Positions 1 to 10,389 of a stretch of DNA of 10,389 nt are shown in pieces. Position 1 is the stretch's first letter, and each line of letters begins with the position of its first letter. The position numbers and the translations under genes were made by a program. The notes under the pieces were generated by a model, which was not told where the DNA came from, did not search any database, and worked only from the letters and a program-made list of their open reading frames with translations. Source of the DNA: a virus (Duplodnaviria; Heunggongvirae; Uroviricota; Caudoviricetes). The stretch is taken from the IMG/VR virus record IMGVR_UViG_2636415610_000011. The stretch is one strand, 5' to 3'.

Positions 1-1260
1 ATGCCAAAACTCACAGATATGCAGATCCGCGCATGGATAAAGGCGGGAGACAGATTTGATGGCAAGGCAGACGGCAACGGCCTTTATATTTGCTACCCCA
101 AAAACTACACAGTCCCGTTCTGGCGATTCCGCTATAAGCTCGCAGGAAAGCAGCGGGCTATGGTTATAGGCTCTTACTCCGAACTGTCACTATCAAAAGC
201 CAGAGAAACAGCAAAAGAGCTGTCAGCCAGAGTTGCTCTTGGCTATGACGTAGCAGCAGAGAAACAGGAACGAAAAGCTGAAGCACTGGCAAAAATGGAG
301 GCTGAGAAAAACGCCATGCGTGTTTCAGATCTGGCCTCCGAATACTTCGAGCGCCAGATACTTCCGAGATGGAAACATCCCGATATCCTTCGCCGGAGAA
401 TTGATAAGGATATTAACCCCTGCATTGGGCATATGAAGGTAGAGGACGTTAAGCCACGCCACATTGACGACATGTTGAAAGGTATCGTTGACCGAGGAGC
501 ACCAACGATAGCAACAGATGTATTACGCTGGACACGCCGTATCTTTGACTATGGGATAAAACGCCACGCTCTGGAGATAAACCCTTGTTCAGCGTTTGAA
601 GTATCTGATGCTGGTGGTAAAGAGGTTTCCCGCGACCGTTGGCTAACTCGCGATGAGCTTATCAGGCTATTCGAGGCTATGCGCACCGCAAAAGGATTCA
701 GCCGCCAGAACGAACTGACATTTAAGCTATTGCTGGCACTATGCGTTCGTAAGATGGAGTTATGCGCCGCACGATGGGAAGAGTTTGATTTAGATGGTGC
801 GGTATGGCATTTGCCGGAAGAACGCAGCAAAAACGGAGACCCTATTGATATACCTCTACCTTCCCCAGCCGTTGAATGGTTGAGAGAGCTACACACCTTT
901 TCATGTAATAGCGCATGGGTGCTTCCGGCCAGGAAGATGCAAAACAGAATGATCCCACATATTCAGGAAAGCACTTTACCCGTAGCACTGGCTAAGGTTC
1001 GCGCCGAAATGCCGGATGTGCCTAATTTCACGATTCACGACTTCCGACGCACCGCACGTACTCATTTAGCAGCGTTGGGTGTTGATCCTGTTGTGGCGGA
1101 ACGATGCCTCAATCATCGCATTAAGGGCGTAGAGGGGATTTATAACCGCCATCAGTATTTTGATGAGCGTAAAGCAGCACTGGCACAGTGGGCTGATCTG
1201 CTGGTGGCACTGGAAAGCGGAAAAGACTACAACGTAACGCCTCTCAGAAGGGCGAACTAA
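1..1260 (+). CDS. int: Tyrosine site-specific integrase, P4-type (N-terminal arm-binding domain of DUF4102 type plus C-terminal catalytic domain)
   Basis: 419-aa ORF. N-terminus LTDMQIRAWIKAGDRFDGKADGNGLYICYP...WRFRYKLAGKQRAMVIGSYSELSLSKARE matches the arm-binding domain pattern of P4-family integrases. C-terminus carries tyrosine-recombinase catalytic residues (HDFRRTARTHL ... LNHRIKGVEGIYNRHQY). ATG at window position 1, so promoter, attL and any tRNA target lie upstream outside the window. Confidence 0.93.
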   Translation: MPKLTDMQIRAWIKAGDRFDGKADGNGLYICYPKNYTVPFWRFRYKLAGKQRAMVIGSYSELSLSKARETAKELSARVALGYDVAAEKQERKAEALAKMEAEKNAMRVSDLASEYFERQILPRWKHPDILRRRIDKDINPCIGHMKVEDVKPRHIDDMLKGIVDRGAPTIATDVLRWTRRIFDYGIKRHALEINPCSAFEVSDAGGKEVSRDRWLTRDELIRLFEAMRTAKGFSRQNELTFKLLLALCVRKMELCAARWEEFDLDGAVWHLPEERSKNGDPIDIPLPSPAVEWLRELHTFSCNSAWVLPARKMQNRMIPHIQESTLPVALAKVRAEMPDVPNFTIHDFRRTARTHLAALGVDPVVAERCLNHRIKGVEGIYNRHQYFDERKAALAQWADLLVALESGKDYNVTPLRRAN

Positions 1261-1355
1261 CTGAATAGATTGAGCCTAGCTCGACGGGGCGAAAAGCGGG
1301 AAGCCTTACCGCCTGGCTCAATCACAAAATAAGGCGCAGCGTAAAAGGTGACGCA

Positions 1356-2321
1356 ATGAACGACTCTCATGAAACAACTGCGGTGCATAGAAATTTATGG
1401 CAGGAATCAGGTATTCCACCTTTGGACTACTGCACGATAGAGCGAGCATCAAAATTATTAAATTGTGAAATTGATGATATATGGCATTGGAAAGATAGAC
1501 TACATATAGACTTTTATGTCTATGCTGACTTTCTTGATTTCATTGAAGCTGATGCCGCCATCCACTTCAAAAAAGATGCTGATTTTATAACTGATTTATT
1601 ACTTATGTACCCAGAAGAAGTAAGGTTTACATTTCCTTTTCTTATTACCAGCGCAAGCAACGAAGTTTATATCCCAGCATCTGAAAGCGGTGCTTATGAG
1701 CTATTTTATGCACATAAACCACTGACAGTTGAAGACAGAGACAATAAAAATGTTTTTGAACAAATTGGCAAAAACTCTTTTATTGTAAGAAAATCAATTG
1801 CATGCGGATTGTTGCGTGTACGCGGTAGTACAACACGACATTATCATTCACAAGAATGTGGAGAGCCATATGTGCGACTTGAAGCAACATTTGATTGTGA
1901 TCTATATAAATTCAAAATGCAAAGTTCCCAGATTCACCTGAGTAGCCTGTCAGATAAAAACATTTATATAACAAAGGCTGATTTAGAATATCTTCACGAC
2001 GCAAAGGTTAATGGAAGTTTTGACGCAGCTAAGAGCAAAAAACGATACGAAATGGCGGTAGAACAGGAACTAATACCTGAAATAAAAAATAGCAACCATA
2101 ATGCCGAGAGACATGCTGAAAACAGGGAAAAACTTTTCAAATCAGCAATATATCTTTTGTCAAAGTATCCTGATGAATGCCGTGGCAAAAAGAAAGAAAT
2201 AAGCCCTGAGAAGTGGCGGGATTGCATAGTGGCTCATAAAGACGAAATTCCACCGTTAGCAATCACAAATGAAGATGTGATTTTGAGACACTTACGTGCT
2301 GCCGCCAACGGTAAGGGGTAG
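1356..2321 (+). CDS. Hypothetical protein, lower-GC orphan cargo gene in the int-alpA slot; function unknown
   Basis: 321-aa ORF with RBS AAGGTG (1345-1350) 5 nt before the ATG. GC is visibly lower than the flanking integrase and alpA (by-eye estimate, about 35-40% versus about 50%). Followed by a strong intrinsic terminator, so it is its own transcription unit. No catalytic motif recognised (no Walker A, HNH or obvious HTH). Confidence 0.75.
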   Translation: MNDSHETTAVHRNLWQESGIPPLDYCTIERASKLLNCEIDDIWHWKDRLHIDFYVYADFLDFIEADAAIHFKKDADFITDLLLMYPEEVRFTFPFLITSASNEVYIPASESGAYELFYAHKPLTVEDRDNKNVFEQIGKNSFIVRKSIACGLLRVRGSTTRHYHSQECGEPYVRLEATFDCDLYKFKMQSSQIHLSSLSDKNIYITKADLEYLHDAKVNGSFDAAKSKKRYEMAVEQELIPEIKNSNHNAERHAENREKLFKSAIYLLSKYPDECRGKKKEISPEKWRDCIVAHKDEIPPLAITNEDVILRHLRAAANGKG

Positions 2322-2336
2322 AGTAGCTAACTATTC

Positions 2337-2367
2337 AGGCACAGTATCATTACTGTGCCTTTTTATT
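2337..2367 (+). terminator. Rho-independent terminator after the orphan gene
   Basis: Perfect 9-bp stem AGGCACAGT (2337-2345) / ACTGTGCCT (2352-2360), 6-nt loop ATCATT, then T-tract TTTTATT (2361-2367); starts 16 nt after the stop codon. Confidence 0.7.
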
Positions 2368-2391
2368 GTTCATATATGTACAGATACTTCC

Positions 2392-2432
2392 TCCCGTAAC
2401 GAAGCAACAACTATCGCTAAGAGGTTACGGGA
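2392..2432. promoter_or_regulatory. Inverted repeat overlapping the alpA ribosome-binding site (putative operator or RBS-sequestering structure)
   Basis: TCCCGTAAC (2392-2400) and GTTACGGGA (2424-2432) are perfect reverse complements separated by 23 nt. The alpA RBS AAGAGG (2419-2424) sits at the loop-stem junction and the ATG is at 2436. Confidence 0.35.
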
Positions 2433-2435
2433 AGC

Positions 2436-2639
2436 ATGAACACCGACACTATTCCTACAAAAGGCTATATCAGACGCTTCCGCCTGGCTGAATTGCTGGG
2501 CGTTAGTGTATCCACCATCGACCGTAAAGTAAGAAACGGTTCACTACCACGTCCGGTAAAGCTGGGAGAAAAAATAACTGCGTTTGATGCGGTTGAGATT
2601 CACAACTGGCTGGCAGAACGCCGCGGGAAGGTGGCCTGA
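2436..2639 (+). CDS. alpA: AlpA/Vis-family small HTH transcriptional regulator / excisionase-like protein
   Basis: 67-aa ORF; IRRFRLAELLGVSVSTIDRKVRNGSLPRPVKLGEKITAFDAVEIHNWL is the characteristic AlpA (prophage CP4-57 regulator) / P4 Vis-like MerR-type HTH. Position downstream of a P4-type integrase is typical. Stop overlaps the next start (TGATG). Confidence 0.85.
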   Translation: MNTDTIPTKGYIRRFRLAELLGVSVSTIDRKVRNGSLPRPVKLGEKITAFDAVEIHNWLAERRGKVA

Positions 2640-3070
2640 TGGAAAAGAAAAACCGCCCATTACAGGCGGCTAATTCAGATATTCGCGTATCTGATGTTAC
2701 GCCCCTTACAAAATCCCTTCAAGAACCAAAGCGCACACCGAAAAAGCATCGTGCCAGAGTCTATATGCTGCGTACTGGTATAGAGGGATGGACAGAAAAT
2801 GACATTCTTCGCTACTGCCGTCTGTCTTCTGGTCGTAACTATGCAACAGAGTTAGAACGCCAGCTTGGAATCACTCTGGAGCGTATCGACGAAAAGAATC
2901 CTGATGGTATCGGAACACACCTTCGCTACCGTTTCTCCTGCCGTGGTGATGTTCTGAAAGTGATCACTCATGTTAACCATCTTGCGAACATAAATGATCA
3001 CAACGGACTTTCTCAGCAGGAAATTGCCGACATTCTGAAACTCTACCCGAACGCGTTTAACGCCGCCTAA
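2639..3070 (+). CDS. Hypothetical protein (143 aa), translationally coupled to alpA
   Basis: ATG 2639 overlaps the alpA stop; RBS GGAAGGTGG upstream. Basic N-terminus (KRTPKKHRAR). No family recognised. Confidence 0.7.
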   Translation: MEKKNRPLQAANSDIRVSDVTPLTKSLQEPKRTPKKHRARVYMLRTGIEGWTENDILRYCRLSSGRNYATELERQLGITLERIDEKNPDGIGTHLRYRFSCRGDVLKVITHVNHLANINDHNGLSQQEIADILKLYPNAFNAA

Positions 3071-3082
3071 CGGAGACTGAAA

Positions 3083-3916
3083 ATGAACATCGAAAAAAGC
3101 AGATTAATTTCTGAGGCCGCCCCTCATCTGAACGCCTCTCTGGGCACAATTAACGGTAATGAATTTGCCGCAATTGTCCCGGTTATTCCTGGTCATATCG
3201 GTGGGCGTGAAACCAATATTGTTAGCGCAAAAGCGTTACACAAAGCGTTGGGCGTGGGAAAAGACTTCTCTACATGGATCACTGATCGCATCTCTGAATA
3301 TGACTTCACCATTGGGCACGATTACTCAGTCCATAAAACAATTTCCCCAAATTTGGGGAAAAGCCCGAATGGCACGGCTTACAGCAAGATTAAGCACTCT
3401 GGCAGACCCGGCAAAGACTATCTGTTAAGTGTCGGAATGGCGAAAGAACTGGCAATGATCGAACGCAATGATCAGGGGCGCGCTATCCGCCGTTATTTCA
3501 TCCAGTGCGAGGAAGAATTACAGCGTAGCGTGCCTGAAATCGCCGCCCGCTATCGTCGCCAGCTAAAAGCCCGTATCAGTGCCGCAAACAACTTTAAGCC
3601 AATGTGCGATGCGCTGAATATGGCCCGTGCCGAGATGGGGAAAACGACGCAGCAACACCACTACACAAACGAGAGCAATATGATTTCTCGTATCGTTCTT
3701 GGTGGGCTAACTGCTAAGCAGTGGGCGCGGATAAATGGCTATTCTGGCGAACCTCGCGACCATATGAACGCAGAACAGCTTGAGCACCTCTCATATCTCG
3801 AAAGCACCAATATCACGTTAATTGATATGGGCATGGAATATGAGCAGCGCAAAGGAGAACTCACCCGCCTGTCGCAACGCTGGCTCGCTAAGCGTCTGGA
3901 GGCGGTCCATGTTTAA
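3083..3916 (+). CDS. Phage antirepressor-like protein (AntA/Rha/Bro-N-type N-terminal domain)
   Basis: 277-aa ORF with RBS GGAG (3072-3075). N-terminal region NIVSAKALHKALGVGKDFSTWITDRISEYDF...GRPGKDYLLSVGMAKELAMIERNDQGRAIRRYFIQCEEEL matches the conserved AntA/Rha-type antirepressor DNA-binding domain. C-terminal half not recognised. Confidence 0.8.
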   Translation: MNIEKSRLISEAAPHLNASLGTINGNEFAAIVPVIPGHIGGRETNIVSAKALHKALGVGKDFSTWITDRISEYDFTIGHDYSVHKTISPNLGKSPNGTAYSKIKHSGRPGKDYLLSVGMAKELAMIERNDQGRAIRRYFIQCEEELQRSVPEIAARYRRQLKARISAANNFKPMCDALNMARAEMGKTTQQHHYTNESNMISRIVLGGLTAKQWARINGYSGEPRDHMNAEQLEHLSYLESTNITLIDMGMEYEQRKGELTRLSQRWLAKRLEAVHV

Positions 3917-4091
3917 GCCGACAGGAACACCACAACCTCAAAAACGCTACAAAGATGCCCACGGAGCACTCGTTACTGTCGAAAGCGTGTCTCACAACCG
4001 AGTGACGTTTTATCGCGACGGGTATCAATCGCCATGCGTACAACCGCTGGCACGTTTCATGAAGGAGTTCGCGGAGGTTAACAAATGCTAA
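3909..4091 (+). CDS. Small hypothetical protein (60 aa), possibly DUF4222-like
   Basis: RBS GGAGG (3898-3902) 6 nt before ATG 3909; start overlaps the upstream stop by 8 nt (translational coupling). The ORF track's longer 3822 start lies inside the upstream gene and is rejected. Pattern YKDAHGALVTV...RVTFYRDGYQSPCVQPLARFMKEF resembles small DUF4222-type prophage proteins, from memory only. Confidence 0.6.
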   Translation: MFKPTGTPQPQKRYKDAHGALVTVESVSHNRVTFYRDGYQSPCVQPLARFMKEFAEVNKC

Positions 4092-5152
4092 CCGCCCAGA
4101 AGAAGACATTTTCACTGGCTGGTATGTCGCCAAAATCCAGCAATATGACAGCAAAGTCAGGCATTAATACAGCAGATACAAGCAAAGTTTATCATTTGCT
4201 GGTGGTAGGAGCGGATGCCTTAACTATGTCAGAAATTACGGTCGATGGTGTTAGCGTTGAGAAGGTCAGCGGCTGCGCCAGAGAATTTCTGGTCGTAGAT
4301 GGCTTTCTCTGCTCGCGTAGTGACTCCACAAAAACCTTCGTCCACGCGCGTGACGTTAACGAAATGAGCGCGATGTACTGTGCTTCTGGTTCTTCCAATA
4401 GTGAGTTTTCGGAGTCCATAAAAAAGAGCTTGCCGTTATGCGGCAACACGGTTTATGGTTATAAGGCACCTCATAAAACGGGTGCCGGGATTGGCGTCCT
4501 GGTAAATCGAATGGCGACATATGACGCGCCGAGCGTCTTTTTTTATGTCGTAGGTCTGACTCACCCATTTTTTGGGCGTTGGTGTATAATCCAGCGCCTT
4601 TGTCAATCAATGGTGGCTCAGGCAGGGGCTTCTTCGGAAGCGCCGGTATCCATTCGAGCCGGTTACGCCAACCCTGTCTGGGCTACCACCAGCGAAATTG
4701 GCGTTTCCGGTGGTAGCGTTACATGCTATCGAATGGAGGCTGCCACATGCTGGCTACTACCCCTACCCAAAAACCGCAATTTATCTGGATTATCGCCGCA
4801 GTTCGCCGCGATTGCCCGACAATTACCGCCAAAATTCATCATATTGCTGCCGAGTCTGAACGCGATGCTCGCCGTTCTCTGGTGCGCGATCACGTCTGCT
4901 TTTTTGCTGGTCGTATCCGCATGGAGGTGGCACATGATTAAAACCTACGATGTGCATATGGATCCCCTCGAACGCACAAGCCAGATCATCACACTGACAG
5001 AAGTGATTAACGACATTCTGGTGAGCAACTCTCCCTCACGAGACGAAAGACTGAAGGCGTTACTCGCGATATTGGATCTCGCCGTTCGTGACGTTCATTT
5101 CCTGCTGGAAGGTGGCGAAATGCCAGTAAAAACGGGGGAAACCAATGAATAA
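4085..5152 (+). CDS. Stop-free 355-codon frame; probably a composite: a roughly 222-aa gene (4085 to about 4753) that has lost its stop and reads through in frame into the 4934-5152 gene
   Basis: RBS GGAGG (4071-4075) and ATG 4085 coupled to the upstream stop (ATGCTAA). Codon usage read by eye looks coding from 4085 to about 4745 (G-rich first positions, few rare codons). The same frame over 4745-4933 is full of rare codons (CTA x3, TTA x3, GGA, CGA, ATA, AGG) while the -1 frame there has none. An automated gene caller would probably report the whole ORF as one hypothetical protein. Confidence 0.4.
4747..4941 (+). CDS. Small hypothetical protein (64 aa) in the -1 frame relative to the 4085 ORF
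   Basis: RBS GGAGG (4735-4739) 7 nt before ATG 4747. All codons are common enteric codons (CTG, CGC, CGT, ATC, CCG, GCC; no rare codons). Stop TAA (4939-4941) overlaps the next ATG (4934) in the same 8-nt coupling arrangement used elsewhere in this operon. Alternative start ATG 4723. Confidence 0.5.
   Translation: MLATTPTQKPQFIWIIAAVRRDCPTITAKIHHIAAESERDARRSLVRDHVCFFAGRIRMEVAHD
4934..5152 (+). CDS. Small hypothetical protein (72 aa)
   Basis: RBS GGAGGTGG (4923-4930) just upstream of ATG 4934; coupled to the upstream stop and to the downstream start (ATG 5145 / TAA 5150-5152). In frame with, and contained in, the 4085-5152 ORF. Confidence 0.45.
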   Translation: MIKTYDVHMDPLERTSQIITLTEVINDILVSNSPSRDERLKALLAILDLAVRDVHFLLEGGEMPVKTGETNE

Positions 5153-5339
5153 CTCAATTAATACCCCTCGCCTTACGTCCGCACTTCAATTAATCGAGCA
5201 AGCAGCGGCTGTCCTGGTTGCTGTCAGTCTTTCGGCTGAAGAAATGGACGCTACTGATGTCGTGGATGCGATTAAAGCGTGCTCATCTTTGGTTAACGAT
5301 GCCCGTGCAGAGCTGGTAATTCTTGGGGGTGAAAAATGA
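5145..5339 (+). CDS. Small hypothetical protein (64 aa)
   Basis: ATG 5145 overlaps the upstream stop by 8 nt; G-rich RBS GGGGGA (5134-5139). Ala/Leu-rich, helical-looking sequence. Confidence 0.65.
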   Translation: MNNSINTPRLTSALQLIEQAAAVLVAVSLSAEEMDATDVVDAIKACSSLVNDARAELVILGGEK

Positions 5340-5599
5340 ATATCAACTTAATTTATCGTCATCCGTGTGGGCTGGAAATTGAATCATTGCTGAGCCGTGA
5401 AGAGCCATATCCAGACACATTCACTCTTGCAGATCGCACGACTGAACGGCTTACCAGAGCGCGCACAGGTCTGGTTCATGTGATGAATGAGATTCTTCCA
5501 TCGGTGGGAGGGGAACAGGCGACAGTAATCACTAGCTGGCTACAAAAAGTTACCTCTCTGATAGATATCAGTTTAATCGATGCGGAGAGTGCGAAATGA
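5336..5599 (+). CDS. Small hypothetical protein (87 aa)
   Basis: ATGA start/stop overlap with the upstream gene (5336-5339); RBS GGGGGTG (5323-5329). Confidence 0.7.
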   Translation: MNINLIYRHPCGLEIESLLSREEPYPDTFTLADRTTERLTRARTGLVHVMNEILPSVGGEQATVITSWLQKVTSLIDISLIDAESAK

Positions 5600-5817
5600 C
5601 CAACATCCAGCTCATTGAAGCGCAATGTCGCATCGAACAGGTTCAGACTGTTTTAGGGTTCTGGCTTGAAGGGGCCAGCCCCAGCAACAGAGACAAGTTA
5701 ATGATTGGCGCGGTTATGTCACTGCTCAATGGCGTACCAGAAGCTATTCAGGAAGCAGACGAATTGTTGGGCAAATATGAGTTACAGAATCATTCAGGCG
5801 AGGCGAAACATGAATAA
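5596..5817 (+). CDS. Small hypothetical protein (73 aa)
   Basis: ATGA overlap with the upstream gene (5596-5599); RBS GGAGAG (5584-5589). Confidence 0.7.
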   Translation: MTNIQLIEAQCRIEQVQTVLGFWLEGASPSNRDKLMIGAVMSLLNGVPEAIQEADELLGKYELQNHSGEAKHE

Positions 5818-6412
5818 TTTCTTAACTTTCCATGCAGAAGCAACGCCTGACGGCGTAAACATCATGCACCGCAGCAACGATGGCATGACAGAACGCGTTG
5901 AGACCGTCTCATATATTGATGCCGTAAATCGTCTGGATGCCGGGGATTATGACGATAAACCAGATGAAGGCATGTCAATACATCTCGCTATAGCCGATGG
6001 CGGCAACCAGGGATATTTCGATTACACATCACAGCATAACGTCATTATGTGGAGATGGCTGATCGCAACAGTATTCATGCTGGAAATGAGAGAGGAAAAC
6101 GGCACTGTCAGCATCATTGATGATACTGGCAATCCTTCCGAAGTGGCTGTTTATTCCAACGGCATCGTCGCCATGCCGCTGTATCCAGTAGCAGAGCGCC
6201 TCGCTATGGCAAACAACATTGAGGGCGCGATGATAGAACGTTTTGGCATCGAGTCTGGCACAGAACGCGCCATCATTTTCTACAGAGCCATGATGGATGT
6301 GGAACAAGGAGCACTGACTCCATTTGGTCGTGAAACGCTTGCTGAACTTCACAACAGCTTTATAGCTGAACTGAATGAAAACGGCATGCCAGCGGAACCA
6401 GTGACGCACTGA
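5810..6412 (+). CDS. Hypothetical acidic protein (200 aa)
   Basis: ATG 5810 overlaps the upstream stop (ATGAATAA, stop at 5815-5817); RBS AGGCGAGG upstream. The ORF-track start at 5705 lies deep inside the previous gene in another frame and is rejected. Confidence 0.75.
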   Translation: MNNFLTFHAEATPDGVNIMHRSNDGMTERVETVSYIDAVNRLDAGDYDDKPDEGMSIHLAIADGGNQGYFDYTSQHNVIMWRWLIATVFMLEMREENGTVSIIDDTGNPSEVAVYSNGIVAMPLYPVAERLAMANNIEGAMIERFGIESGTERAIIFYRAMMDVEQGALTPFGRETLAELHNSFIAELNENGMPAEPVTH

Positions 6413-6422
6413 GGATGGAGCC

Positions 6423-6764
6423 ATGATTACTAAAAATTTCCGACTGAATGCGCTGGCAAATAAGTATGCGTCGGCACTGTATAACCACATTACCTCCACC
6501 AGCGGCGGGGACTATTTCATGGTTGATGCGGACGGCGAGGCCGTACGTGTGGAAATCGTCAATGGAGTAAAAGACGTTCGCAGCCTGATCGATAGCTACA
6601 CACTGGCAGCCATGAAAGTGTTCTACCCGCAGTGGGAAACCGTGGGGATCGAGCTTCTTGAGCGTTGCGTCACTAAGGACGGATTGACTGACGTCGGGCG
6701 TGAGATATGGCAAAGCATGGTTAATGACATGGGCGCAACTGTAGCGGGAGGTTCTCATGCGTGA
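6423..6764 (+). CDS. Hypothetical protein (113 aa)
   Basis: RBS GGATGGAG (6414-6421) immediately before ATG 6423, which lies 10 nt after the upstream stop. Confidence 0.75.
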   Translation: MITKNFRLNALANKYASALYNHITSTSGGDYFMVDADGEAVRVEIVNGVKDVRSLIDSYTLAAMKVFYPQWETVGIELLERCVTKDGLTDVGREIWQSMVNDMGATVAGGSHA

Positions 6765-7128
6765 AAATGCAGAAATGGCGCTTAGCTCCGCAATCGGAGA
6801 GCAGGTGGCAAAGATTGCTGGTGCTGTGTGGATTCATAACCTTCATTCTACTGGTGAAGAGAAAATGGCAATTCAGACGCCAGAGGGACGCACCATTACT
6901 ACATCTCTGAAGCCGTCAGATGTTTGTGATCTGATTTGCGCATTCATGTACCCAGCAATGAGGACTGTCCACAGCGATAAGTGGAAACTTGCGACAACCG
7001 CTGAATTTGATATGTGGCTAAACAATGATGGCATGCTGACTGATTACGGAATAACCAAGTGGCAGATGCTGGTTAGCCATATCGCAAACGCTATAGACCA
7101 CGTGGGGTACGGTGATGCGAAACATTGA
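6757..7128 (+). CDS. Hypothetical protein (123 aa), immediately upstream of and coupled to the primase-helicase
   Basis: ATG 6757 overlaps the upstream stop by 8 nt; its own stop (7126-7128) overlaps the primase start. Confidence 0.75.
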   Translation: MRENAEMALSSAIGEQVAKIAGAVWIHNLHSTGEEKMAIQTPEGRTITTSLKPSDVCDLICAFMYPAMRTVHSDKWKLATTAEFDMWLNNDGMLTDYGITKWQMLVSHIANAIDHVGYGDAKH

Positions 7129-9871
7129 TCTTATCCGTCAGGTTATCAGTGCGTCTGAAAACAACTGGCCTCATGTGCTGGGCTGCCTGAACATAAATGT
7201 CCCTGACTCTCCGCGCCGTCATGCTCCCTGCCCTGCATGTGGGGGCAAAGATCGATTCCGGTTCGATGACAACGGGCGCGGTAGCTTCATCTGTAATCAG
7301 TGCGGCGCTGGTGATGGGCTGGATTTAATTAAACGCGTAAATAACTGCGACACAACAGAGGCGGCGCTTCTTGCCGCTGATGTTCTGGGTATTGATTACC
7401 GGACAACGGAAACACCAGAAGCCACCAGCCAGAAACGGGAACAACTGGAAACCGAGCGCCAGCGACGCGAACAGGAGCGCCTGAAAAGGGCAGAGAAGGA
7501 CGAACAACAAAGACGGGATACGTTTTCCCGTCAGTTTGATGACATGCGCAGAAAGGCTGTAAACGGCAAATCTGATTATCTGGTTGCGAAAGGGGTAGGT
7601 GATTTTACATTCCCCGTGTTGCCCGATGGATCTCTGTTGCTGGCGCTGGTGGATAAATCCGGCGCAGTCACAGCAGCACAGACTATTACCTCACATGGTG
7701 AAAAAAGACTCCTGAGAGGTTCAGCAAAGCGGGGGGCATATCACGCCATAAACGCGCCAGAAACAACACAGAGCATCTTAATTACAGAAGGGCTGGCAAC
7801 GGCATTATCTGCCCATTTAATTCGTCCAGAGGCGCTGACAGTGGCGGCGATTGATGCCGGGAACCTGTTATATGTCGCCCAGGTACTGCGGGATAAATTT
7901 CCTTCAGCACAAATCATCATTGCTGCGGATAACGACCACAGCGAAGGAAGACAAAACACGGGGAGAATAGCAGCAGAAAAAGCAGCTTTATCTGTTTCTG
8001 GATGGGTGGCATTACCCCCGACAGATCACAAAGCAGACTGGAATGATTACCACCAAAAACACGGCATTAAATGCGCCACAGAAGCGTTCAATAAGTCAAT
8101 GTACCAACCACAGGGTAATGGCGTGAAACAGGAGCCACAGACCATTGAGGGAAGCGATTTTAAGGTTATGGATACCGACCCACTGAAACCAAGAATAGAA
8201 AGCCGCGAGGATGGTATTTATTGGGTATCTCCGAGAGCTGACAGCCAGAGTGGAGAAATCATCAATAACGAAAGCTGGTTATGTTCTCCGTTAAGCGTTA
8301 TCGGTACTGGCAGAGACGATAAAGACCAGTATCTCATTCTTCGCTGGCTGTCGTTTGGTTCTGAAACGCCGACAACCGCTGCCATTCCACTGGCTGATAT
8401 TGGTGAACGTGAAGGATGGCGCACACTTAAAGCTGGTGGGGTAAATGTCACGACCAAAAGCAGCCTCAGAGCAATACTGGCAGACTGGCTACAACGCAGT
8501 GGCTCTCGTGAATTGTGGCGTGTTGCTCATGCCACTGGCTGGCAATGCGGAGCGTACATCATGCCTGATGGGGAAATCATCGGAACACCTGAAAATCCTG
8601 TGCTGTTCAGCGGGAGAAGCTCAGCCGCAGCCGGATATACCGTCTCAGGGAGCGCGAAAAGCTGGCGTGATAACGTGGCGCGTCTGGCCTTTGGTAACTA
8701 TTCAATGATGACCGGGATCGGCGCAGCACTGGCAGCGCCATTGATTGGGCTGGTGGGCGCTGACGGGTTCGGCATTCATTTCTATGAGCAGTCGAGCGCA
8801 GGTAAGACCACCACGGCAAACGTGGCGAGCAGCTTATACGGCAACCCTGATTTACTGCGGCTGACGTGGTACGGAACCGCGCTGGGGCTGGCAAATGAGG
8901 CCGCCGCCCACAATGACGGACTAATGCCGCTTGATGAAGTTGGTCAGGGCGCTGATCCTGTCAGCGTTTCACAGTCTGCCTATGCGTTATTTAACGGTGT
9001 AGGGAAACTGCAAGGCGCTAAAGATGGTGGAAACCGGGATCTAAAACGCTGGCGTACAGTGGCAATCAGCACCGGAGAAATGGATTTAGAAACATTTATC
9101 GCTACTTCCGGGCGAAAAACCAAAGCCGGGCAACTGGTGCGACTGCTGAATATTCCGTTGAGTAAAGCAGTACGCTTTCACGATTACCAGAACGGAAAAC
9201 AGCACGCAGACGCACTGAAAGACGCTTACCAGCATCACCACGGCGCGTCCGGGCGTGAGTGGATTAAATGGCTGGCAGACCACCAGCAACAGGCTATTAA
9301 AACCGTTCGTGACTGCGAAAGCAGATGGAGAAGCCTGATCCCATCCGATTATGGTGAGCAGGTTCACCGTGTAGCCGCGCGATTTGCCATTCTGGAGGCC
9401 GCATTGTTGTTAGGCGAGGTTGTAACAGGCTGGGATGCTCAGACATGCCGTGATGCGATACAGCACAGCTATAACGCATGGTTGCGCGAGTTCGGCACAG
9501 GTAACAAAGAGCATCAGCAGATTATTGAACAAACGGAGGCATTTCTTAATGCCTATGGGCTTAGCCGTTTTGCACCATTTCCATACAGCCCGGCAGATTT
9601 GCCCATCAAAGATTTAGCCGGATACCGTCAGCGTGGAGAACATGACGAAAGCCCAATGATTTTCTACACATTCCCGGCCACATTTGAAAAGGAGATCGCA
9701 TGTGGTTTCAACGCAAAACAGTTTGCTGAAGTGTTGAAAAAAGCCGGGATGCTAACCCCACCAAACAGCGGTCGTGGATACCAAAGAAAATCACCACGTA
9801 TTCAGGGACGACAAATAAACGTTTATGTACTCAATTACCAGCCAGGAGATTATAACTCATCTGAAGAATGA
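7115..9871 (+). CDS. Primase-helicase of the phage P4 alpha type (N-terminal Zn-ribbon, Toprim primase core, C-terminal P-loop NTPase/helicase-like domain)
   Basis: About 918 aa. Zn-ribbon CPACGGKDRFRFDD...GSFICNQCG; Toprim signatures ITEGLATAL (conserved Glu) and IIIAADNDHSEG (DxD); Walker-A-like FYEQSSAGKTTTA in the C-terminal domain. ATG 7115 preferred; GTG 7112 (ORF-track start) is an alternative. Confidence 0.93.
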   Translation: MRNIDLIRQVISASENNWPHVLGCLNINVPDSPRRHAPCPACGGKDRFRFDDNGRGSFICNQCGAGDGLDLIKRVNNCDTTEAALLAADVLGIDYRTTETPEATSQKREQLETERQRREQERLKRAEKDEQQRRDTFSRQFDDMRRKAVNGKSDYLVAKGVGDFTFPVLPDGSLLLALVDKSGAVTAAQTITSHGEKRLLRGSAKRGAYHAINAPETTQSILITEGLATALSAHLIRPEALTVAAIDAGNLLYVAQVLRDKFPSAQIIIAADNDHSEGRQNTGRIAAEKAALSVSGWVALPPTDHKADWNDYHQKHGIKCATEAFNKSMYQPQGNGVKQEPQTIEGSDFKVMDTDPLKPRIESREDGIYWVSPRADSQSGEIINNESWLCSPLSVIGTGRDDKDQYLILRWLSFGSETPTTAAIPLADIGEREGWRTLKAGGVNVTTKSSLRAILADWLQRSGSRELWRVAHATGWQCGAYIMPDGEIIGTPENPVLFSGRSSAAAGYTVSGSAKSWRDNVARLAFGNYSMMTGIGAALAAPLIGLVGADGFGIHFYEQSSAGKTTTANVASSLYGNPDLLRLTWYGTALGLANEAAAHNDGLMPLDEVGQGADPVSVSQSAYALFNGVGKLQGAKDGGNRDLKRWRTVAISTGEMDLETFIATSGRKTKAGQLVRLLNIPLSKAVRFHDYQNGKQHADALKDAYQHHHGASGREWIKWLADHQQQAIKTVRDCESRWRSLIPSDYGEQVHRVAARFAILEAALLLGEVVTGWDAQTCRDAIQHSYNAWLREFGTGNKEHQQIIEQTEAFLNAYGLSRFAPFPYSPADLPIKDLAGYRQRGEHDESPMIFYTFPATFEKEIACGFNAKQFAEVLKKAGMLTPPNSGRGYQRKSPRIQGRQINVYVLNYQPGDYNSSEE

Positions 9872-9896
9872 GCTTCTTCATGTGCGTAGAAAAGGT

Positions 9897-10007
9897 GTTG
9901 GTTCAGTTGGTTCAGTTGGTTCAATTTGTAAAGAGTATTGTTTTATAAGGATTTTATTCTTTTTATTGAACCAACACTGAACCAACAACACGGTATTTTG
10001 AACCAAC
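9897..10007. repeat. Iteron array: putative replication origin of the island
   Basis: Three perfect tandem GTTGGTTCA (9897-9905, 9906-9914, 9915-9923), then a 43-bp strongly AT-rich tract (9924-9966), then three inverted copies TGAACCAAC (9967-9975, 9978-9986, 9999-10007) spaced 11 and 21 bp (helical phasing). Lies 26 bp downstream of the primase-helicase stop. Confidence 0.6.
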
Positions 10008-10098
10008 ACAATGTGACTGAATTGATGCGCACAACACCTGGCTGGCATCAGAGAGTGTTTTACGAGACTTTCGTAAAATCCTGTGTACAAGGGCGTGA

Positions 10099-10389
10099 TG
10101 AACCGCCCCGGGTTTCCTGGAGAGTGTTTTATCTGTGAACTCAGGCTGCCAGATCATCGTTTCCGATGGAAGCATAATAAGCTTTTTCTGCTTCTGCCGG
10201 TGGGATATGGCCCAGCCTTTCCAGCAATCGTCGATTGTTATACCAGTCCACCCACGTGAGTGTGGCCAGCTCCACTTCTGTCCGGTTTTTCCAGCTCTTA
10301 CGGTGTATTACCTCCGCTTTGTAAAGGCCATTGATGCTCTCCGCCATCGCGTTGTCATACGAGTCACCAGTACTTCCTGTTGATGCCAG
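10099..10389 (-). mobile_element. IS3-family insertion sequence terminus (IS629/IS1203-like), partial, continues beyond the window
   Basis: Terminal sequence TGAACCGCCCCGGG... begins at 10099 (5'-TG end typical of IS3 family) and precedes the 3' end of an rve-type transposase on the - strand. Assignment to IS629 is from memory of its terminal sequence, not a search. Confidence 0.8.
10141..10389 (-). CDS. IS3-family transposase (OrfB, DDE/rve integrase core), C-terminal fragment; 5' end outside window
   Basis: Reverse-strand translation ...LASTGSTGDSYDNAMAESINGLYKAEVIHRKSWKNRTEVELATLTWVDWYNNRRLLERLGHIPPAEAEKAYY... contains the conserved rve C-terminal motif (DSYDNAMAES). Stop at 10141-10143; the frame is open to the window edge. 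Confidence 0.85.
   Translation of the reverse strand: MASTGSTGDSYDNAMAESINGLYKAEVIHRKSWKNRTEVELATLTWVDWYNNRRLLERLGHIPPAEAEKAYYASIGNDDLAA

Follow-up and report, generated by a model that had tools for sequence, protein, structure and literature searches.

Among the mobile elements described so far, the closest to the locus considered here is EcCIMP1 of Escherichia coli MP1 (Pick, Stadel and Raivio 2025, PMC11773190), for which experiments have demonstrated the behavior of a phage-inducible chromosomal island (PICI): its excision depends on the presence of the P22-like prophage Kapi1, transduction by Kapi1 takes place at a very low rate, and its alpA promoter fires only after helper induction and is boosted by AlpA. 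Its authors labeled one protein encoded behind alpA an 'antirepressor' from annotation alone, and they name antirepressor, Ash and primase as the strongly conserved parts of EcCIMP1-like elements (PMC11773190); a survey of satellites in Enterobacter published in 2026 likewise lists 'antirepressors' of the AntA/AntB, BRO and Rha types as common PICI genes (PMC13612085). The homologous gene, here named antA, lies in a 10,389-nucleotide (nt) stretch of DNA from a Caudoviricetes virus record (IMGVR_UViG_2636415610_000011), the whole of which is called the window and provides all positions given below. By its sequence, the gene string considered here, alpA-orf143-antA-DUF4222, is the early alpA string of a PICI of the EcCIMP1 type. 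We tentatively read the AntA protein as a helper-induced DNA-binding regulator, a reading to which we give somewhat less than an even chance.

The window is 97.7% identical in DNA to EcCIMP1 over about 7.5 kilobases (2629-10098), and the two share the gene order alpA, a gene for 143 amino acids (aa), the 277-aa AntA protein, DUF4222, 'ash', an icd-like gene and, further on, the TOPRIM/DUF927 primase, which bears out the proposal of an earlier sequence-only reading that the stretch is a satellite-like island. The counterpart pair of EcCIMP1 (NZ_CP139039 3,582,376-3,583,653; PMC11773190) consists of essentially the same genes behind alpA, 270 of the 277 residues of AntA and 139 of the 143 residues of orf143 being identical. 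Because of this near-identity to a published, annotated pair and because the class is well known, the feature as such is already known, that is, as annotation in a published satellite. The two islands nevertheless differ upstream, since the window island has another integrase, another alpA allele and an extra low-GC 321-aa gene, and adjoins yicC (window 1-10098 is 100% identical to the yicC-adjacent region of E. coli strain cq9), whereas EcCIMP1 adjoins tRNA-Thr. The homology to EcCIMP1 begins only at 2629, 10 nt before the end of alpA, and the two AlpA proteins are equal at 8 of 67 positions; this late start indicates that the window island has swapped its integration module (integrase, cargo gene and alpA allele).

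All genes of the island string in the window run one way, on the + strand. The alpA gene (67 aa; 2436-2639; Pfam Phage_AlpA, E 2.2e-8), whose product is an AlpA/Vis-family regulator or excisionase 35% identical to P4 Vis/ORF88, overlaps with its stop the start of orf143 (2639-3070; listed as an open reading frame, ORF, and in RefSeq) in TGATG (2637-2641); a gap of 12 nt, holding a GGAG ribosome-binding site, separates orf143 from antA (3083-3916); and the start of the 60-aa DUF4222 gene (3909-4091; Pfam DUF4222, E 6.1e-25; RefSeq), the last of the string, overlaps the antA stop by 8 nt. A terminator-like hairpin (2337-2360) precedes alpA, the gene unit starting after it, and a scan of the + strand for further terminator-like sites found none between 2361 and 4365. 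The positions of both orf143 and antA, as well as their membership in one tight string with alpA, are as the sequence-only reading had given them. Klebsiella, Enterobacter, Shimwellia, Acerihabitans and Orbaceae keep this operon-type packing, and the Klebsiella and Orbaceae islands also keep the alpA/orf143 overlap; we infer with some force from such tight packing that alpA, orf143, antA and DUF4222 are co-transcribed. DUF4222 genes keep company with AntA-domain genes in other settings than the overlap seen in the window: in Klebsiella one lies directly upstream of the primase gene block (5154-5318 in island L092), and in the Stx phage TL-2011c one shares the early-left region with an AntA-domain gene (9060-9281 in L005).

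Both orf143 and antA are annotated in RefSeq, and their products are conserved across genera at 47-98% (orf143) and 45-98% (AntA) identity, far above what chance ORFs would show, so that both are real genes. The pair occurs in 616 of 5,426 complete E. coli genomes at a coverage of at least 80%, that is, in about 1 in 9. In Klebsiella, Enterobacter, Shimwellia and Acerihabitans the string alpA-orf143-antA precedes the primase gene, as it does in Orbaceae at 45-49% AntA identity; antA follows alpA in islands with a D5_N/Pox_D5 replicase and in islands without a detectable C4 RNA as well, and a full-length homologue, 63% identical, is encoded by Edwardsiella phage EPP-1. The antA gene is a conserved core gene of this satellite family. 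One E. coli island type (L087-L089) has alpA followed by an 84-85% identical AntA (8001-8825 in L087) without orf143; these islands have no detectable C4 RNA, a D5_N/Pox_D5 helicase in place of the DUF927 primase, and ProQ and PerC downstream. The orf143 product is basic (isoelectric point, pI, 9.5), with a net charge of +6 overall and of +8 within its first 45 residues, and, besides a disordered N-terminal tail that is basic, it has a conserved core, PKKHRAR...TENEILRYCRLSSGRNY...DGIG.H.RY. It matched no family in Pfam, NCBIfam and PHROG scans and no sequence in the PDB, and its predicted model, built on a shallow alignment, gave no significant structural match, so that no fold, a winged helix included, could be assigned. 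It is truncated in Shimwellia and undetected in one Orbaceae island, AntA being kept in both, which marks orf143 as dispensable.

The AntA protein (pI 9.3) matches the complete Pfam AntA model (PF08346, model 1-68/68) over aa 47-129 (3221-3469) with E 2.4e-21 and 76.5 bits against a cut-off of 27, and PHROG 'anti-repressor Ant' families match its N-terminal half; a literature search on the AntA domain and PF08346 found nothing functional. Among 1.84 billion representative proteins it has 7,433 relatives, many of them 220-310 aa long (mostly 240-280 aa), with the same two-domain design and 29-56% identity. Conservation, wing charge and the profile search described below refer to an alignment of 34 members of this family, all 34 of which match Pfam AntA; in it L56, W65, D80, R136, E143, R164 and R225 are invariant, and G186, K187, E197 and R256 nearly so.

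Structure prediction, which the sequence-only reading had suggested, points to a DNA-binding architecture like that of DdrC, a protein of Deinococcus radiodurans. In the AlphaFold2 model (mean predicted local distance difference test score 80, above 90 for most of aa 150-270), a disordered segment (aa 1-26) is followed by a beta-hairpin and a winged-helix-like helix-turn-helix with a disordered insertion at aa 86-108, and the C-terminal part is formed by two long helices (aa 130-184) leading into a helical bundle. When the model was compared with solved structures by Foldseek, the six best matches were all DdrC chains (PDB 7QVB, 7UDI and 8U0G; E 3.6e-6 to 2.6e-3, probability 1.00), and DdrC was the sole significant match, the next one having E 0.35. 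The match spans both domains, from the beta-hairpin and winged helix through the connecting helices to the C-terminal bundle, and the model thereby repeats the Dachshund-type winged helix, long helices and bundle of DdrC. The latter is a dimer composed of a winged helix-turn-helix and a four-helix bundle, which binds and compacts DNA (PMC9303277), and DNA circularization and break sensing have been added to its activities in a 2024 paper. DdrC is, however, a chromosomal DNA-damage-response protein forming a domain-swapped dimer, whereas the AntA protein is the product of a satellite gene and may or may not form such a dimer. In 85% of the 34 family members the wing (aa 85-111 of the AntA protein) is basic, the mean charge being +3.2 and that of the window protein +6; its sequence is variable, often with a GRP core flanked by K/R, which we take to resemble the AT-hook minor-groove motif. 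The connecting helices of the family are also basic.

The C-terminal helical domain (aa 150-277; 3530-3913) has relatives elsewhere. The sequence-only reading had called the C-terminal half unrecognized, which holds for Pfam and NCBIfam, where no family was found, but not for PHROG and PADLOC, since phrog_2657, a 'transcriptional regulator', covers aa 102-266 and the PADLOC candidate PDC-S22 matches the C-terminal domain with E 4.3e-11. In tblastn searches the domain recurs in phage proteins at 30-44% identity, with E down to 4e-16: gp45 of Hafnia phage yong1 combines it with Phage_pRha, a protein of Oceanospirillum phage GJ44 combines it with KilA-N, and it is found in 21 Salmonella phage records, including ES18 gp79, PS34 and SPN9CC, in which the named products are Rha-family or transcriptional regulators. 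These regulators thus resemble the AntA protein in having a DNA-binding-type head in front of the same C-terminal domain, and differ from it in that the head is Phage_pRha or KilA-N instead of AntA; moreover, the yong1 gp45 gene lies between lysis and terminase genes, whereas antA belongs to an early regulatory operon. The recurrence of the domain behind Rha or KilA-N heads fits a common effector or oligomerization module placed behind interchangeable DNA-binding heads. Shuffled heads on common tails were reportedly described for the phage BRO/KilA/Rha/Ant regulators by Iyer, Koonin and Aravind in 2002.

A further property of the AntA protein emerges from the comparison with island L082, whose DNA is 97-100% identical to that of the window except for two sharp patches. 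One is the isrK-C4 region described below; the other comprises aa 58-118 of AntA (3254-3436), that is, the helix-turn-helix and the basic disordered wing, where identity falls to 34%, as seen in the identity profile and in alignments. This exchangeable cassette exists as type A, that of the window, in 613 of 5,426 complete E. coli genomes and as the rare type B in 24 of them, the type B cassette sitting inside otherwise 97-100% identical genes. Co-variation of the cassette with C4 was ruled out by island L009, in which a type A cassette is combined with an L082-type C4, and by L090 (type A) and L091 (type B), whose C4 is 97% identical. Linkage to the int-alpA segment was likewise rejected, as EcCIMP1 and L082 share the proA/tRNA-Thr site and integrases of equal length and have different cassettes. 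No linkage was seen to the DUF4222-isrK leader among the islands compared, to orf143 in the comparison of the window with L082, or to the replicase type (DUF927 or D5_N/Pox_D5). The independence of the cassette from all examined island modules suggests a target outside the island, or else a non-specific activity. Since islands that differ in immunity RNA, replicase and integrase are dominated by one allele, an island-specific operator is less likely to be the target.

In the mechanism that we favor, induction of a P22-like helper would switch on the alpA promoter and AlpA would boost its own expression, a step shown for EcCIMP1 with a different alpA allele; orf143, AntA and DUF4222 would then be produced from the same transcript, as the gene packing suggests. 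As a DNA-binding regulator, the AntA protein would belong to the shuffled AntA/Rha/KilA-N/BRO class of phage proteins, and it would not act as an antirepressor that sequesters a repressor. By analogy to the DdrC dimer, dimerization probably occurs through the C-terminal helical bundle, with the flexible wing and the connecting helices, both basic, as probable DNA contacts. The target would more likely be found in the helper or host, as a conserved site or factor there, than in an operator specific to the island, and the output may lie in controlling the transcription of helper or island, or in a DNA transaction (replication or packaging, for example).

Several observations weigh against assigning such a role. 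The structural alignments with DdrC have 12-16% identity and constitute a fold-level link only, and a profile of the 34-member alignment run against all PDB sequences with E up to 10 did not recover DdrC. The winged helix of DdrC is itself acidic and is thought not to touch DNA (PMC9303277), and the helix-turn-helix part of the window protein (aa 58-84) has a net charge of -3. DNA binding and dimerization are predicted properties, for the AntA protein and its close homologues alike. Because the cassette co-varies with no island DNA, no target can be named, and the repeated motifs around the module, considered as candidate operators, occurred only in chance-level pairs. Finally, winged-helix domains can also bind proteins, so that the predicted structure is compatible with an antirepressor too.

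The main alternative is that AntA is a true antirepressor, which binds and inactivates the CI/C2-type repressor of a resident P22-like or lambdoid helper prophage, or another repressor such as LexA, and thereby reinforces or triggers helper induction. The sequence-only reading had offered this role with a helper-prophage repressor as the target, a claim that follows the family name and finds no support in the domains of the protein. It is encouraged by the Pfam name and the PHROG labels, by the conserved core position of antA in the satellite family, by the independence of the cassette from island modules, which would place the target outside the island, and by the winged-helix domains of the Ski/DdrC type, which have been proposed as protein-binding surfaces (PMC9303277). 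The role of derepressor is also vacant in this island, which has no homologue of the P4 epsilon protein (a tblastn search of the window with epsilon gave no match at E up to 0.1). There is a precedent in P4 epsilon itself, which derepresses P2.

However, the domains that define proven antirepressors and their close relatives are missing, as a Pfam scan found only the AntA domain in the protein and neither KilAC/ANT nor P22_AR_N/P22_AR_C. P1 Ant1, as annotated in the P1 record, has KilAC and no Pfam AntA domain and is only marginally similar to the AntA protein (E 0.012), and a P1-like phage has ORF6N and KilAC in the ant position. The experimentally studied 'Ant' of phi24B cannot serve as a precedent either, because it is a different, P22-Ant-like gene next to pR', whereas the AntA-domain protein of Stx phages is a 209-aa protein encoded near int, on which a literature search found no study. 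The helper Kapi1 has antirepressor-type proteins of its own, Kapi1_065 of the P22 type (Bro-N and P22_AR_C, beside Arc-family genes) and Kapi1_032 (Rha and KilAC), and the AntA protein resembles neither (E 2.1 and 4.3); the idea that it is a relative of the helper's own antirepressor or repressor-control genes was accordingly dropped, none in Kapi1 being similar. P22 Ant and these Kapi1 proteins share with the AntA protein a two-domain design, a shuffled N-terminal head and annotation as antirepressors, but their C-terminal domains differ from its own, and a P22-type Ant gene stands under Arc/Mnt control in immI, which antA does not; no Arc/Mnt gene was seen among the window ORFs scanned.

The physiology of EcCIMP1 also argues against an antirepressor. 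Deletion of the island left the mitomycin-induced Kapi1 titer and CI-lux unchanged and lowered the superinfection immunity of lysogens, so that the island strengthens immunity to Kapi1 (PMC11773190), the opposite of what an antirepressor would be expected to do; the alpA promoter, moreover, is induced only after the helper has already been derepressed. These deletion data and this order of events fit poorly with a strong immunity-breaking antirepressor, within the scope of the data, which is induced Kapi1 only, not spontaneous induction or other helpers. Taken together, we consider a true antirepressor unlikely, although the most serious competitor of the DNA-binding regulator. The other role that the sequence-only reading had offered, that of the island's own derepressor acting by protein contact, is unlikely as well, since no repressor-family protein was recognized among the window ORFs scanned and the recognizable immunity element is an RNA of the C4/P4-CI type.

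A second alternative, which we regard as improbable, is that the AntA protein, with or without orf143, is an anti-phage or exclusion factor that adds to superinfection immunity, for example by binding incoming DNA. It would explain why EcCIMP1, on which no known defense system was found, raises the immunity of lysogens to Kapi1 (PMC11773190), and it would suit both the PDC-S22 match of the C-terminal domain and a predicted fold of the DNA-binding type. PDC-S22 is, however, a computational candidate only, for which no testing paper was found in the literature, and such candidates can be flagged merely for sitting in prophages or satellites; antA, in turn, belongs to a helper-induced regulatory operon instead of a variable cargo region, and is conserved core, not swappable cargo. 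Less probable still is a DdrC-like handling of DNA, in which the AntA protein would bind ends or nicks and compact or circularize satellite DNA during replication, packaging or arrival: DdrC, the sole significant match and one covering the whole protein, compacts and circularizes DNA and senses breaks, EcCIMP1 has no recognizable terminase or packaging-redirection gene (PMC11773190), and a small-terminase fragment of the P22 gp3 type lies about 320 nt downstream of the module, but the similarity to DdrC is at the fold level, the Rha-type relatives of the C-terminal domain have no known role in DNA repair or packaging, and nothing ties the AntA protein to the fragment, which several antA-keeping islands lack. 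A small remainder of the probability, about as much as we give to the exclusion factor, lies outside these four readings.

The terminase fragment deserves description in its own right. Between DUF4222 and isrK, window 4233-4339 (+) agrees at 95 of 107 positions with the antisense strand of a small-terminase gene of the P22 gp3 type (nt 268-374), taken from a P22-like prophage. The homology ends exactly at the 22-mer GAAGATTTATCTGAAGTCGTTA (4339-4318, - strand), which we take to be the P22 pac site. All 22 positions of GAAGATTTATCTGAAGTCGTTA are found in the prophage gene and 16 of 22 in the window and in EcCIMP1; this 16/22 match alone is not significant, being attained by 21 of 200 shuffles. 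Islands L009 and L082 have the fragment as well. No DNA similarity links Kapi1 to the window, and the small terminase of Kapi1 is different. Possibly the fragment was captured as a packaging site used by a further group of P22-like helpers, a reading in line with the very low rate at which Kapi1 transfers EcCIMP1 and with a remark of the authors on the unexplained packaging of that island (PMC11773190).

A broader interpretation of the DdrC match is also conceivable. Both DdrC structure papers, one of them PMC9303277, describe the protein as genus-specific and without homologues outside Deinococcus. DdrC may share ancestry with the AntA-domain proteins of mobile elements. In its strongest form, which we consider rather doubtful, the widespread phage and satellite family combining AntA with a helical bundle would be the mobile-element counterpart, and possibly the source, of DdrC; its members would be dimeric DNA-binding or DNA-organizing proteins, and in EcCIMP1-type islands the cassette at aa 58-118 would set which external DNA or helper component is engaged.

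The remainder of the window is organized as follows. The integrase gene (1-1260, +; family profile scans and annotation) is followed by an int-alpA RNA motif recognized by Rfam (1269-1335, +) and by the 321-aa orphan gene (1356-2321, +), which has a GC content of 35-40%, belongs to no family, matches PADLOC PDC-S31 weakly (E 0.002), and is closed by a terminator-like hairpin (2337-2360) with a 10-bp stem of which 5 are GC pairs, the whole element with its TTTTTATTGTT tail (T-run) extending over 2337-2370 (+). This gene is not present in EcCIMP1, and ORFs of similar length fill the same slot in Klebsiella and other islands; the gene looks like one of a cargo or defense hotspot. On the gene string's other side, an Icd-like ORF (4747-4941, +; 28% identical to P1 Icd) is followed by seven small ORFs (+), the TOPRIM/DUF927 primase gene (7112-9871, +), an iteron cluster (9896-10009) and the C-terminus of an IS3-family transposase (10141-10347, -). 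The cluster, just 3' of the primase gene, consists of at least six copies of GTTGGTTCA in both orientations, and a second cluster, 80% similar, lies elsewhere in EcCIMP1, the arrangement being reminiscent of P4 ori and crr; the GTTGGTTCA repeats are probably replication-origin iterons. Whereas EcCIMP1 continues beyond the primase, the window island ends there at the insertion sequence (IS) fragment, which suggests that this copy is interrupted or truncated and may be defective. The likeness to intact islands stops at 10098, and both cq9 and EcCIMP1 continue with genes for DUF2824 and a P22-type DNA-ejection protein.

The region between the gene string and the Icd-like ORF holds the RNA immunity elements, an isrK-like element (4466-4543, +) and a C4-family RNA (4606-4693, +; 79.5 bits), both RNA family matches; the C4/CI-type RNA is 71% identical to the P4 cI region over 160 nt. 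Sites complementary to C4 are found at 4196-4208 in the leader, 4507-4514 in isrK, 4709-4717 and 4729-4737, the last spanning the ribosome-binding site of the Icd-like ORF, with complementarity of 9-11 nt at the leader (4198-4208) and the two downstream sites and 8 nt in isrK. Two segments of the C4 RNA are thus complementary to upstream (leader, isrK) and downstream sites, an RNA immunity layout like those of P1 and P4. The layout as a whole takes in 4196-4208, 4286-4298, 4507-4514, 4606-4693, 4704-4737 and 4904-4916, and it includes a repeat of four TTGCTGGTGGTAG-like copies that matches C4 at its 3' end. Islands that are otherwise nearly identical carry different alleles of the C4/isrK region. 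Control of antA by C4, as in P1, was considered and rejected, because the complementary sites lie in the leader, isrK and the icd ribosome-binding site and none near antA, only a chance-level C4-complementary 8-mer being found near alpA, orf143 and antA. The annotated 355-aa 'ash family protein' ORF (4085-5152, +), in which Pfam Phage_ASH matches aa 124-232, crosses isrK, the C4 RNA, the icd-like ORF and a 72-aa ORF, and carries a pseudogene flag in MP1; it is probably not a real protein, the Ash match presumably arising from translated RNA-gene sequence.

With the gene pair itself already annotated, what is added here is the structural match to DdrC, the C-terminal domain common to Rha and KilA-N proteins, the exchangeable cassette, and the recognition that the name is no evidence of function. 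The last point suggests some caution toward thousands of phage and satellite genes labeled 'antirepressor' by their AntA domain, as the label is not evidence of such an activity. If the AntA protein acts on the helper, whether as a regulator or as an antirepressor, it would offer a handle on how EcCIMP1-type islands choose and exploit their helpers, in a satellite family whose orf143-antA pair is carried by about 1 in 9 complete E. coli genomes.

The position of antA is finally worth comparing with those of the corresponding genes in P1 and P4. Like P1 immI (c4 RNA-icd-ant1/ant2), the island contains a C4-family RNA, an Icd-like ORF and a protein named 'antirepressor'; in P1, however, ant is downstream of icd and repressed by C4, whereas in the island antA is upstream of the RNA and has no C4 target, and what follows icd is a replication operon, as in P4 and unlike P1. 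Of the P4 genes compared, only Vis, the N-terminus of alpha and Int find matches in the window, which has no homologues of epsilon, orf151, orf106, sid, delta or psu. The layout is nonetheless analogous to that of P4, with Vis/AlpA, an immunity RNA of the C4/CI family, small ORFs, a primase and iterons in both. In clear distinction from P4, which has nothing between vis and the immunity RNA and depends on a P2-like helper, the island carries orf143-antA-DUF4222 in precisely this interval, and the helper of its close relative EcCIMP1 is P22-like.

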